A stretch of 63,028 nucleotides of DNA, filler included, from Collodictyon triciliatum (lineage: Eukaryota), in assembly GCA_043381765.1 (NCBI GenBank). It is 55 parts of 55 records of this genome, joined end to end, with 100 filler letters (N's around TTAATTAATTAA, not from the genome) between each part and the next. Parts side by side here need not be neighbours in the genome. Positions count along the whole stretch, not along the records: positions 44,830 to 45,874 come from JBHJMP010012549.1; 54 more parts are not named here. One strand, given 5' to 3'. The position numbers and the translations under genes were made by a program. Positions within the stretch are counted from its first letter, which is position 1, and each line of letters starts with the position of its first letter. Of the stretch, positions 43,060-56,176 are shown piece by piece. The notes beneath the pieces are model-generated. The model did no database searches, was not told where the DNA came from, and saw only the letters and a program-made list of their open reading frames with translations.

Positions 43060-43584
43060 GAGCAATTTGATCAAGTCTTTGCCATCGAGAATTGCGGAGG
43101 GTCAAGTGTGTCTGACAGGATTTGGTTGTTCAATCGAAAGGAAACAAAAAACGGAGCTCTGTGTGATGTAATATAACGTGAGTGCCATTCCCCTTTGTTG
43201 TTTGGGGCGAATGTAGCTGGGGTTGTGTCTGTGGAGTGAAAAAATCGATACAAAATATCGCCGCCGACACCCTACAAAAAGTCAAAACATCAACGATGGG
43301 GAGAAACACTGGGCATCACCCACACCCTGCTCACCGCAAGCTGGAGACAAGCACGAATCCGCAAGTCCTTCCAAATCACTGCTCTCTAATGCTTAATATC
43401 ACCAATAGGGAGCTATGGATAGGCACACACGCGGCAAAAGCTGGCAAAGTCTCCCAACAATGCACACTTCGCAGCAACGGTGATGAATCCATTGAGCACA
43501 CATTTATGCAATGTCCCTTCGCTCAAAACCTGCGCGAAACAGCCGGTGAGATTCTTCGACTGACACTCAAGACGGCTGCGGCTG
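43060..43584 (+). mobile_element. Decayed LINE ORF2 3' fragment with inverted 5' segment (about 43060-43245 on minus; 43246 onward on plus)
   Basis: Both parts align to consecutive parts of the 34501-35339 ORF but on opposite strands. Confidence 0.85.
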
Positions 43585-44829: not shown

Positions 44830-44969
44830 TCTTTGTTCTTCTTCTTGGCCTCGGTTGCCTTGGGCTGGATTTTCGCGAGGTGGGCCTTCTGCTTTTCAGA
44901 TACGACGCGTTTGGACTTGGGTTTTTTTTCTATGGTATCCATTTCGTTTTCGGAATCGCTCATATCCAT
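44830..44969 (-). CDS. Small acidic-then-basic virus-like protein, 3'-partial
   Basis: MSDSENEMDTIEKKPKSKRVVSEKQKAHLAKIQPKATEAKK. It starts 28 nt from the divergent penton ATG. Confidence 0.6.
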
Positions 44970-44997
44970 CCAAAGAAAATAATTTCTGAGTTAATAC

Positions 44998-45762
44998 ATG
45001 GAGAAAGCTTATTGCCTTCACGTTGATAGTGCCAATAGATCAAGCGGCATTATATCAGACTTTAATTTTGCCACAACACAAAACAGATATGTTGCATCCT
45101 CAGTCAGGGTCGCACTTGAAAGTATTCAAATTCTTTATGCCGTACATAATGTTACGAGTGCCAATAATGAATTAGCTTTTCTTTGTAGTGTCAGCGGCAG
45201 CCCTGTTTCTTACAATATTTCACTAGAAACTGGCTTGCAAACAATCAATGAAATAGTCAGTGACATCCGAACAAAAATGAACGCGGCAACAGCGTCCCAG
45301 TCAACCAATGCAGTTGTTTCTGTTTCAATTCTTACTGGCAAGCAAAAGATAGCAATCAAAGGAGACGGTGCAAGTATTTCATATGAGCTGTTTGTGAATT
45401 CGTCAACGTGTCGGGACCTCATAGGACTGACGGCTAATTTAACATTCAACACTAGTTTCGTTGAGCTGCAGAATATGGTCAATGTTCGTCCGTTTGATTA
45501 TGTGTATTTGGTCAGCCCGAATGTCCAGAGTTCGAGTTTTGCCAGTAACATAGGCGGCAATGGCATCATCGCAAAAATACCGCTGAGTGTTGGTTCACGG
45601 TACTCTAGCTACTTTGAGGTGAATGACAATATCCTAGAGAATCTGATGGACTGCAGTTATATTCCGTTCAGCTGGAATTTCCGGCTGGTTGATAGACTGG
45701 GGAATACAATCAATCAACTTATGGACTATTCTTTTACATTGCGGATTATTCCAGATTTTTAA
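44998..45762 (+). CDS. Polinton-like virus/virophage-type minor capsid protein (penton, single jelly-roll), complete, 254 aa
   Basis: LHVDSANRSSG..SDF; VALESIQI...HNV...NN.L; I.LETG..TINEIV; LIGL; N.VNVRPFDYVYLVS; IIAKIPL; FRLVD..GN.I...DYSFTLRI. Intronless with minimal intergenic gaps. Confidence 0.85.
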   Translation: MEKAYCLHVDSANRSSGIISDFNFATTQNRYVASSVRVALESIQILYAVHNVTSANNELAFLCSVSGSPVSYNISLETGLQTINEIVSDIRTKMNAATASQSTNAVVSVSILTGKQKIAIKGDGASISYELFVNSSTCRDLIGLTANLTFNTSFVELQNMVNVRPFDYVYLVSPNVQSSSFASNIGGNGIIAKIPLSVGSRYSSYFEVNDNILENLMDCSYIPFSWNFRLVDRLGNTINQLMDYSFTLRIIPDF

Positions 45763-45776
45763 ATCTTGCCTAAAGT

Positions 45777-45874
45777 ATGGGTTTTTTCATAACAGAAGAA
45801 AAGGAACTACCGGAATTTTCCAATCAAGACGCAAACAAAGTATTAAAAGTCGATCCGAGCGGGGTTTATCTACA
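45777..45874 (+). CDS. Start of a downstream viral ORF, possibly a fibre-like protein
   Basis: MGFFITEEKELPEFSNQDANKVLKVDPSGVYL begins 14 nt after the penton stop. LP....D..KVL.V...G resembles a motif of viral fibre proteins. Confidence 0.45.
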
Positions 45875-55131: not shown

Positions 55132-56176
55132 CAAATCTATCAATGTTTGTTCTAAGATTATTGTTAAATGCGGGCCGTGCAACTATTGCCTGTGTCTCAG
55201 CACCTACGGCACCGAAATTTACATAGTTCACTCTTGAAGGATATTCAGCTAGCACATTTCGAGTTATTTGCACTTCTCCCGTTCCTTCAGTGGGTAATGC
55301 ATCAAAATCACGTTCTTGACGATATCCTGGTGGCCCTGATTGTGCGGCCCGATTTAGTACACCAATAGTCCTAGACTTTGTCCCTGGTGTCATCGGTTCA
55401 CCAGTTCTATTTATACTCACTCTACTATATTTTTTAGTATTACTACTTTCTCCTTGCATATAATCACTAATATTTTTATTTTCAGTTTGTATATTTTGAC
55501 TCATAGTAGTTGGATATGCACTACCTACACCTATTTCTTGCCTTACAATTTGTGGAGTGCCTACTCGTTGATTTTCAGTTTGTATATTTTGACTCATAGT
55601 AGTTGGATATGCACTACCTACACCTATTTCTTGCCTTACAATTTGTGGAGTGCCTACTCGTTGATTTGCAGTAGCAACATTATATTTATCAAGTAACTCT
55701 GAATAGCCTCCAATTATTTCATCATATTGTTCTGTTAAAGTTGCATTAGCTTCAGTTAATTCCATAATTTGTTCATTAAATGCTTTAATATCTTCATCAT
55801 TTCGTTGAATTCTAATTTCCAGTCCTTCAATTGTTTTTTGTAATTGTTCATTTGTTTTTTGTAATTCAATATTTTTGGCATTTAAATCTACATTGCGGCT
55901 ATCCGTTTGCTGCTTTTCTCTCGTTAACTTTTCATATTGTTCTTTTGCAGTTTCTAAATCTGATCTGAGTCTATTTCTTTCAGCAACTGTTACACTTGTA
56001 TTTCTTTCAAATTCTGCCAATCTTGAATTTGCCGTTACTAATTGTTCATTGAGTGTTTCGGTAGCTTTTTTAATTGCTTCTACATTTTCTGCACCTGTTG
56101 TATTTTGTTGTTTTAAAAGTCTGACATTACTTTCACTACTAGCCAAGTCTCGTTGTAATTGTTCTTTATCTCTCTG
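55132..56176 (-). CDS. Intronless coiled-coil protein fragment (348 codons, open at both ends) with an exact 31-aa duplication; possibly viral
   Basis: Heptad-rich first 190 aa, a 93-bp perfect tandem duplication at 55478-55663, and strongly AT-ending codons. Confidence 0.75.

Follow-up and report, generated by a model that had tools for sequence, protein, structure and literature searches.

Polinton-like viruses (PLVs) form a supergroup of small eukaryotic double-stranded DNA viruses with double-jelly-roll capsids, and the protein at the five-fold corners of such an icosahedral capsid is the penton. A PLV gene set is described in the accessible part of 10.64898/2026.06.19.733378, which also places the capsid modules of some PLV groups close to those of giant viruses. 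The structural modules of PLVs have been described as including fibre genes, and the phage-like fibre protein of Gezel-14T is present in virions, as far as the available portions of the sources extend (PMC12220804; 10.1101/2022.07.28.501842; 10.1101/2025.10.09.676808). With regard to expression signals, mavirus-type elements and the late genes of Cafeteria roenbergensis virus (CroV) have TCTA flanked by A/T (PMC8547959, available part), and PgVV has the mimivirus early motif AAAATTGA (10.1101/2022.07.28.501842, available part). We analysed one contig (JBHJMP010012549.1) at positions 44830-45874 of the window, a 63,028-nucleotide (nt) stretch of joined sequence from the draft assembly of Collodictyon triciliatum (GCA_043381765.1). 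A preliminary description of this contig had proposed a compact viral module with genes for a basic protein, a penton, and a fibre-like protein, belonging to a PLV or virophage. That observation was confirmed and its reading is supported: with a probability of roughly 0.8, the contig is a fragment of a PLV structural-gene module with near relatives in freshwater metagenomes.

The window consists of 55 contigs of 1,042-1,065 bp each, ordered by length and unlinked, with spacers of 44 N, TTAATTAATTAA, and 44 N between them. Positions 44830-45874 are exactly one contig of 1,045 bp. Because the window was joined from separate contigs, the sequence adjoining this one is not its genomic context. The contig carries a complete open reading frame (ORF) of 254 amino acids (aa), the 5' fragment of a divergent ORF, and the 5' fragment of a co-directional ORF. 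The 254-aa ORF is unbroken from ATG to TAA, and Tandem Repeats Finder returned 0 rows for tandem repeats on the contig. The three ORFs had been described in this way at the outset, and the 14-nt downstream spacing, the uninterrupted ORF, and the lack of a detected repeat all agreed with our own analysis. The coding features are as follows.

44998..45762, plus strand: complete gene for the penton (minor capsid protein), 254 aa, assigned by profile and fold.
About residues 49-161 of that protein: predicted domain inserted in the penton jelly-roll.
44832..44963, minus strand: 5' part of the basic-protein gene, truncated at the edge of the contig; the conserved ATG (44961-44963) opens a stretch of 44 codons, assigned by ORF and alignment to relatives.
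45777..45874, plus strand: first 32 codons of a putative fibre- or spike-like gene, starting 14 nt after the penton stop and broken off where the contig stops.

Eight relatives of the 254-aa protein, with 39-91% identity, were found among 576 candidates. In a library of 1.84 billion proteins, it was matched by 53 representatives at E<=1e-3, nine of which were at <=1e-10. The metagenome scan gave 11 loci out of 408 pattern matches. At the DNA level, nine loci matched the contig, and the closer matches (75-87% identity) spanned much or all of it, both flanking ORF fragments included. Synteny of all three ORFs was kept in 8 further metagenomic loci. The window penton was 88% identical to that of L003, the closest long relative, and the codon differences between the two were 55 synonymous and 31 non-synonymous of 254. 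Because relatives were found, synonymous differences were in excess, and synteny was kept in metagenomic loci, the three ORFs are, on sequence grounds, real genes and not chance ORFs.

The 254-aa protein alone matched 0 Pfam families (E<=1), had PHROGs rows at E>=0.053 and nothing better, and returned only a flagellin (E 0.38) when searched against PDB with phmmer. We assembled an alignment (A2) of 53 sequences, namely the query, P0001-P0008, and 44 of the 52 other library representatives; P0010, P0012, P0014, P0016, P0030, P0043, P0044, and P0052 were left out as fragments or proteins of odd length. When searched against PDB, the A2 profile recovered P1v1 of Paramecium bursaria chlorella virus 1 (PBCV-1; 8h2i_bG, E 1.2e-19), P1 of the same virus (6ncl_a6, E 9.2e-9), and the penton of Emiliania huxleyi virus 201 (EhV-201; 8rbs_K, E 1.3e-3). 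The fourth row was a cohesin at E 0.77. Pfam DUF5901 was matched by 14/53 A2 members at E<=0.01 (best 9.1e-9), and the query itself is, by its sequence, a distant relative of DUF5901 that falls below scored membership. No publication was found for 'DUF5901' in a literature search, with supplementary files lying outside that search.

The AlphaFold2 model of the penton built on A2 had a mean predicted local distance difference test score (pLDDT) of 87.9 and a predicted template modelling (pTM) score of 0.74. Foldseek ranked the mavirus penton first in PDB (E 2.8e-10, TM 0.63, probability 1.00), followed by 3j26_N (3.2e-8), which we take to be the Sputnik penton, adenovirus penton bases (about 1e-6), and PBCV-1 P1v1. 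With VIA-align, the highest Z scores were those of PBCV-1 P1v1 (17.4, 245 residues aligned) and P1 (15.2, 134 residues), and mavirus (13.6), adenovirus penton bases (12-13.3), Sputnik (11.5), and EhV-201 (11.0) came after them. Alignments to these vertex proteins spanned 233-246 residues (134 for the short P1), and unrelated jelly-rolls were next, with Z below 6. In BFVD, the best named match, second-best overall, was a protein of the PLV Tetraselmis viridis virus S1 (E 4.7e-15, TM 0.73); other matches included Adomavirus LO5, the minor capsid proteins of mavirus and Qinghai Lake virophage, and many giant-virus proteins.

In the profile alignment with the short P1, residues ~50-160 of the query are skipped. 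The insert alone matched the crown domain of the adenovirus penton base ('ADDobody') with Z 8.1 and flagellin-type domains with Z 7.6. Because P1 skips the insert and the insert matches the crown domain, the modelled architecture is read as a single jelly-roll that forms the base and carries an inserted domain, the plan also seen in the mavirus and adenovirus pentons. No clear contrast in conservation was found between jelly-roll and insert. Taken together, sequence profile and fold strongly support the identification of the 254-aa protein as a capsid vertex (penton) protein. The preliminary description had made its penton call depend on a jelly-roll penton model; the protein does model as one, and the call was borne out by the profile match to P1v1 (E 1.2e-19) and by Z scores of 11.0-17.4 to known pentons. 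A family that was blank in Pfam, PHROGs, and direct PDB sequence search now has a firm functional label.

All statements on gene context derive from relatives that are 83-87% identical to the contig in DNA, the window itself showing 1 kb. Three long relatives, L003 (14.8 kb), L004 (12.9 kb), and L010 (16.4 kb), have one common layout; the L010 penton is only 38% identical to the window penton. The relatives encode an integrase with the rve domain (Pfam E 7.5e-12 in L003), a protein of 760-790 aa that matches DUF5906 (E 1.7e-16), a domain forming the helicase portion of primase-helicases, and a Pox_A32 packaging ATPase (E 2.4e-9). The gene for the ~115-aa basic protein has the same orientation as the ATPase gene and lies 6 nt upstream of it. 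Divergent from the basic protein are the penton and then a 737-807-aa protein. These are followed by a coiled-coil protein of 1,188-1,368 aa in convergent orientation, by a protein of ~115 aa, and by one of 533 aa. The order in the relatives is integrase, primase-helicase, packaging ATPase, and basic protein, then, divergently, penton, ~800-aa protein, coiled-coil protein, ~115-aa protein, and major capsid protein (MCP).

Assignment of the 533-aa protein as the MCP came from the Atlas, where its model aligned to double-jelly-roll clusters with TM 0.65-0.71. PF21738 (DJR-like_dom) reached the Atlas naming bar for this protein, and its feature neighbours were mostly Preplasmiviricota. The neighbour clusters were mixed, with Capsid_N, DJR-like_dom, and Sputnik_MCP domains in minority shares. 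No sequence matches were obtained for the MCP in a phmmer search of PDB with the L010 protein, in a PDB search with a four-sequence profile, or by tblastn against phage records. In L003 and L010, the penton is thus predicted to be encoded with a double-jelly-roll MCP and an A32 ATPase. The gene set of the relatives agrees with the described PLV gene set cited above, and PLV groups with giant-virus-like capsid modules would fit the sequence link to chlorovirus pentons. The rve, DUF5906, and Pox_A32 genes and the double-jelly-roll MCP of L003, L004, and L010 support the earlier assignment to a PLV or virophage genome.

Relatives occur in freshwater and lake metagenomes: part of the contig was contained in 20 rows, which came from 17 studies, and the best share of sampled words was 0.30. 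No sequencing run contained half or more of the sampled words; the matching pieces were short and came from related genomes, and the uncovered parts are uninformative. The scans that we applied to IMG/VR and to phage records returned no close relative by sequence. Scans of viral_contigs with a single protein or with alignment A1 gave no relatives, a weak result, as these scans used other peptide patterns than the metagenome scan.

The region between the basic-protein and penton genes, and the short motif in it, were compared across the relatives. The features of this region and the motif before the downstream gene are as follows.

44964..44997, no strand: divergent intergenic region of 34 nt (28 nt with the first ATG), candidate bidirectional promoter.
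44967-44969, minus strand: in-frame upstream ATG of the basic-protein gene, adding 2 codons to give 46 codons.
44974..44987, no strand: near-palindrome AGAAAATAATTTCT made of two inverted overlapping TTTCT motifs, conserved in relatives.
44983-44987: TTTCT of the penton, starting 15 nt before the penton ATG.
Complement of 44974-44978: TTTCT of the basic protein, starting 15 nt before the basic-protein ATG.
45762..45766, plus strand: AATCT motif variant, 15 nt before the fibre-like ATG, overlapping the penton stop codon.

The basic protein of the relatives mostly starts with MSDSENEM, which corresponds to the second ATG of the window (44961-44963). The first ATG (44967-44969) appears to be a recent addition, common to L006 and two database proteins. 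Because the relatives start at the second ATG and the motif spacing fits it, the true divergent gap is probably 34 nt and not 28. A gap of 34 nt splits as 10 + 14 + 10 nt. The gap measured 28-40 nt in 8/9 loci examined, the exception being L003 with a 231-nt insertion. AGAAAATAATTTCT had a single exact match in the window and was conserved in L001-L006, L009, and L010, with variable flanking bases, even where the penton was 38-41% identical.

Motif occurrences were counted in L003, L010, and L011 (3/11 loci, divergent from one another), using non-overlapping ATG-started ORFs of >=100 aa with 45 nt upstream. WWTCT started at -15 in 11/25 genes, and the other 40 upstream positions together had 6 occurrences. 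The binomial tail was 1.5e-18 for a position picked after viewing the data, which is still far from chance over 41 tries. The genes carrying the motif at -15 were those for the basic protein, the penton, the fibre-like protein, the ~115-aa protein, and the MCP. The form before the fibre-like gene was TTTCT in L004 and AATCT in L003 and the window. The rve, 187-aa, and primase-helicase genes had no -15 motif, and the ATPase had only a TTTCG/TTTCC variant located inside the preceding coding sequence. We conclude that the motif is a predicted promoter-type element for structural genes and that minimal bidirectional promoter is a fair description of the gap. The tiny bidirectional promoter suggested earlier gained from the conservation of the gap and the position-locked motif; what changed was its size, more likely 34 than 28 nt. 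Joint activation of the structural genes would depend on a short element, a run rich in A/T plus TCT, whose end lies 10 nt ahead of each ATG. In the 34-nt gap, the two inverted overlapping copies would together serve the basic-protein and penton genes as a bidirectional promoter of minimal size. A literature search gave no publication pairing 'polinton-like' with 'bidirectional promoter', with supplementary files, which possibly hold PLV promoter logos, outside the search.

More than one polymerase could read such an element. It is possible, though we lean away from it, that WWTCT is a host RNA polymerase II initiator-type or start-codon signal and not a promoter of a helper giant virus or a late promoter. 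The constant spacing of 10 nt to the ATG suits an initiator whose leader is very short, and at least one PLV isolate is nuclear-replicating and lytic, according to the available part of 10.64898/2026.06.19.733378. However, the motif is confined to structural genes and is absent from the integrase, 187-aa, and primase-helicase genes, a distribution more like that of a temporal class. The WWTCT-type motif also recalls the A/T-flanked TCTA of mavirus-type elements and CroV late genes. By this analogy, the whole structural module might be driven by a 5-8-nt position-locked promoter that is read by the late machinery of a helper giant virus, a proposal that we hold as doubtful. If it were true, the lineage would be a virophage-like dependent of a freshwater giant virus, and the motif could serve to locate that partner. 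WWTCT-N10-ATG offers a testable handle on the timing of structural genes and possibly on the polymerase, whether of the host or of a giant virus.

Two further arrangements of the motif were seen in the relatives. L011, a distant relative, has a second palindromic pair (TAGAAATATTTCTA) at 3644-3676, between divergent genes for 467-aa and 114-aa proteins; therefore, motif copies that are inverted and overlap recur at a second pair of genes. In L003, the 231-nt insert (approximately 5887-6103) splits the gap and has a motif copy on each side. The insert contains 21-nt internal inverted repeats that are 90% complementary and 142 nt apart, and on its two sides stands a direct duplication of 24 nt in which the promoter motif is contained. 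In appearance, the insert is a small element resembling a miniature inverted-repeat transposable element, the insertion of which left each gene its own motif copy.

The fragment of the downstream gene encodes 32 residues, which were 97% identical to the L003 (807-aa) and L004 (804-aa) proteins and 69% identical to the 737-aa protein of L010, where the penton is at 38%. Over the relatives, identity in this fragment was 69-100%, even with the penton at 38%. In alignment A4, N-terminal conservation extended to about residue 62. The 20 homologues were mosaic: residues 1-62 were common to many, blocks 94-303 and 296-418 recurred at shifted positions, and the C-terminal part (~485-790) occurred in another subset. 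S, T, G, N, and A made up 46-52% of residues. The monomer model of the 807-aa protein was poor (pLDDT 46) and confident only at ~495-600 and ~668-795, and these two C-terminal domains were beta-rich. Poor monomer models are common for proteins that fold only as trimers. Residues 486-605 matched a Klebsiella phage baseplate protein (Z 9.8), a Pseudomonas phage capsid spike (Z 8.4), an Acinetobacter phage tailspike (Z 8.1), and the CBA120 tailspike TSP4 (Z 7.6-7.8), a Z range (7.6-9.8) that the structure-comparison tool itself grades as middling. The nearest Atlas feature clusters were phage tail-fibre-like with a score of 0.92, which serves as a lead only. The 807-aa protein had no match in PDB by phmmer, and Pfam and PHROGs searches with 13 fibre-like homologues gave no meaningful family, 1/13 matching an unnamed PHROG.

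These data suggest that the ~800-aa protein is probably a vertex fibre or spike in which a conserved anchor to the capsid is combined with receptor-binding parts that can be exchanged. It would be a trimer, attached to the capsid by the conserved N-terminus of ~60 residues, while binding to the host surface would fall to the shuffled modules of its middle and C-terminal parts. Another kind of structural or surface protein, such as a capsid-decorating or cementing protein or a secreted adhesin, would agree with the failure to match any fibre family and with structural matches that are middling and cover about 120 residues only. We consider that alternative unlikely, as the gene comes directly after the penton with its own -15 motif, an invariant N-terminal module is joined to shuffled distal modules, the composition and unfoldable monomer are typical of trimeric fibres, and the top 5/5 structural matches were phage spike, tailspike, or baseplate proteins. 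A complex prediction with 2 penton copies and fibre-like residues 1-66 scored 0.00 in both runs; these were made without alignments or controls and give no verdict. On the strength of the mosaic homologues, the spike-domain matches, and the composition, the fibre-like label of the preliminary description is plausible and not proven.

Two observations concern the 5' end of the fibre-like gene. A motif, G..G..L[ST].[DN]G....W, was present once or twice near the N-terminus in 12/16 homologues checked (P0062-P0076), at residues ~49-64 and ~76-115. Similar motifs occur in the N-termini of phage tail fibres. In one freshwater metagenome, the summed contig depth peaked at 45775-45809 (47 compared to 2-27 elsewhere). 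Depth of this kind mixes organisms, and the peak over the first ~35 nt of the fibre-like gene is a hint that fits a 5' module common to many genomes.

The fragment of the basic protein in the window aligned to full-length proteins of 112-116 aa in L003, L004, and L010. The family had 22 homologues at E<=1e-3, none of them named, with 20 database homologues and L010 among the rows, and lengths of 103-125 aa. The isoelectric point (pI) was 9.5-9.7 in the three full-length relatives tested, so the protein had been correctly called basic. Its members have an acidic N-terminus, a near-invariant core (SEKQ..HL.KIQPKATEAKKKNKE), and a conserved C-terminal LFR. There was no match to the basic protein in Pfam, PHROGs, or PDB, and a 22-sequence profile searched against PDB gave only E>=0.12. 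A DNA-associated or assembly role is putative and is the weakest part of our reading; we propose it because of the charge, the -15 motif, and the place directly before the packaging ATPase. Expressed along with the ATPase, the protein would be an assembly factor associated with the virion or with DNA, and penton pentamers would close the MCP lattice. Two orphan neighbour families, basic and fibre-like, are now tied to the same structural module.

With these genes in hand, the type of virus can be considered. A PLV fits better than a classical virophage, with the qualification that the loci are incomplete. That the element is a true virophage (Maveriviricetes, as mavirus and Sputnik) and not a PLV is improbable. 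In its favour are the match of the penton model to mavirus and Sputnik pentons, one MCP neighbour cluster in the Atlas with Sputnik_MCP domains in 29% of members, and the resemblance of the A/T-rich run plus TCT to the TCTA late motif that the available part of PMC8547959 gives as common to mavirus-type elements and CroV. In contrast, the penton sequence is related to chlorovirus P1/P1v1 and not to virophage pentons, the replication gene is a DUF5906 primase-helicase, and the best BFVD matches include the Tetraselmis PLV protein. At a Pfam cutoff of E<=0.01, none of the ORFs of >=80 aa (10 in L003 and 11 in L010) matched a cysteine protease, which also speaks against a virophage and is not decisive, as the loci are incomplete. 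Complete PLV genomes are about 14-40 kb long and have terminal repeats at their ends. Terminal inverted repeats were not found in L003, L004, or L010; for this reason the three contigs are probably incomplete, and because they are not shown to be complete, absence of the protease is weak evidence. A fragment of a giant virus (Nucleocytoviricota) instead of a small PLV is very improbable, for although the best solved relatives are chlorovirus pentons and relatives match DUF5901, a family also on giant-virus proteins, L003, L004, and L010 pack the integrase, primase-helicase, ATPase, penton, fibre-like gene, and MCP into 13-16 kb, with the density and gene content of a PLV.

Several points weigh against a PLV structural module as we have described it. 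Only 1 kb of the element is visible, and its gene context is taken wholly from relatives of 83-87% DNA identity. The penton query itself has no Pfam hit. The MCP has no sequence hit in PDB or phage records, its predicted fold coming from the Atlas alone, and without terminal repeats none of L003, L004, and L010 is a demonstrated complete genome. A clean motif is missing before the ATPase and coiled-coil genes. Coverage by the one RNA-library contig is restricted to 45755-45874, and as this contig may be DNA carry-over, it is not transcription evidence. Lastly, the fibre-like protein has no Pfam or named PHROGs family, a monomer pLDDT of 46, and middling Z scores.

Three other contigs of the window, at 6916, 31060, and 55132, had been singled out earlier for comparison with the penton contig. 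The minus-strand ORF of contig 55132-56176 had 88% DNA identity over 481 nt to the coiled-coil gene of L004. At the protein level, the two were 46% identical overall, with the first ~150 residues near-identical and the rest diverged, and this contig is plausibly of the same or a sister element as the penton contig. On contig 6916-7967, the reading frame of a double-jelly-roll MCP stays open to the start of the contig and encodes ~340 residues of the C-terminal part. Identity of that MCP to its counterparts in L003 and L010 was only 25-29%, compared with 57% between the L003 and L010 proteins themselves. Because its identity to the relatives' MCPs is so low while the penton is 88% identical to that of L003, contig 6916 belongs to a different PLV lineage than the penton contig, and the draft assembly therefore contains fragments of at least two PLV lineages. 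No tie to the element was found for contig 31060, its ORF having no match to the PLV loci, Pfam, PHROGs, or PDB. Thus, linkage was favoured for the element type of 55132 and was not for the other two. A comparison of trinucleotide and guanine-cytosine composition over the 55 contigs did not separate viral contigs from others at 1 kb, and by nearness to the penton contig, 6916 ranked 6th, 31060 13th, and 55132 18th; the composition check of these three contigs was thus uninformative at this length.

Elsewhere in the window, zf-RVT domains (E about 5e-6), as in retroelements of the long interspersed nuclear element type, were found on two unlinked contigs (34501-35339 and 43182-43584). Further contigs had a RING finger, Sel1 repeats, and pentapeptide repeats. 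Judged from the domains on these other contigs, the assembly appears to be mostly eukaryotic DNA. PLVs are an already known kind of virus, the contig itself is an ordinary fragment, and the general picture of PLVs is unchanged.

Among known systems, PBCV-1 P1 and P1v1 (6NCL chain a6 and 8H2I chain bG) are the best fold matches of the penton and share its jelly-roll base, and P1v1 also aligns across the inserted region. These two and, weakly, the EhV-201 protein were the only solved proteins reached by the sequence profile. However, PBCV-1 is a 330-kb giant virus, and identity in the structural alignments is 13-20%. P1 (170 aa in the PDB record) is without the insert of ~110 residues, and P1v1 (530 aa) is twice as long as the protein described here. 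The pentons of mavirus (6G41, 6G42) and Sputnik (3J26) have the same plan of jelly-roll plus insert in 287-362 residues, and their alignments span 242-243 residues; in contrast to PBCV-1, there is no sequence-level match, identity being 8-15%. Virophages encode a maturation protease, whereas none was seen in the relatives' incomplete loci.

The adenovirus penton base is a fold match over 242-246 residues (Z 12-13), and its crown domain resembles the insert. The partnership of penton base and fibre in adenovirus has a parallel here in the adjoining genes for the penton and a putative fibre. Adenovirus differs in that its penton base is about twice as long, and no fibre-tail motif was recognised in the downstream protein of the contig. 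Within the PLVs, the early motif AAAATTGA of PgVV differs from the WWTCT-type motif, according to the available part of 10.1101/2022.07.28.501842. Maps of Tetraselmis PLVs include a large Smc-like protein that may parallel the ~1,350-aa coiled-coil protein of the relatives (10.1101/2025.10.09.676808, available part). As far as the accessible portions of 10.1101/2022.07.28.501842 and 10.1101/2025.10.09.676808 extend, described PLVs (the Tetraselmis TsV-type and Gezel-14T/PgVV) have the MCP, minor capsid protein, A32 ATPase, and tail-fibre-like protein clustered as they are in the relatives of this contig.

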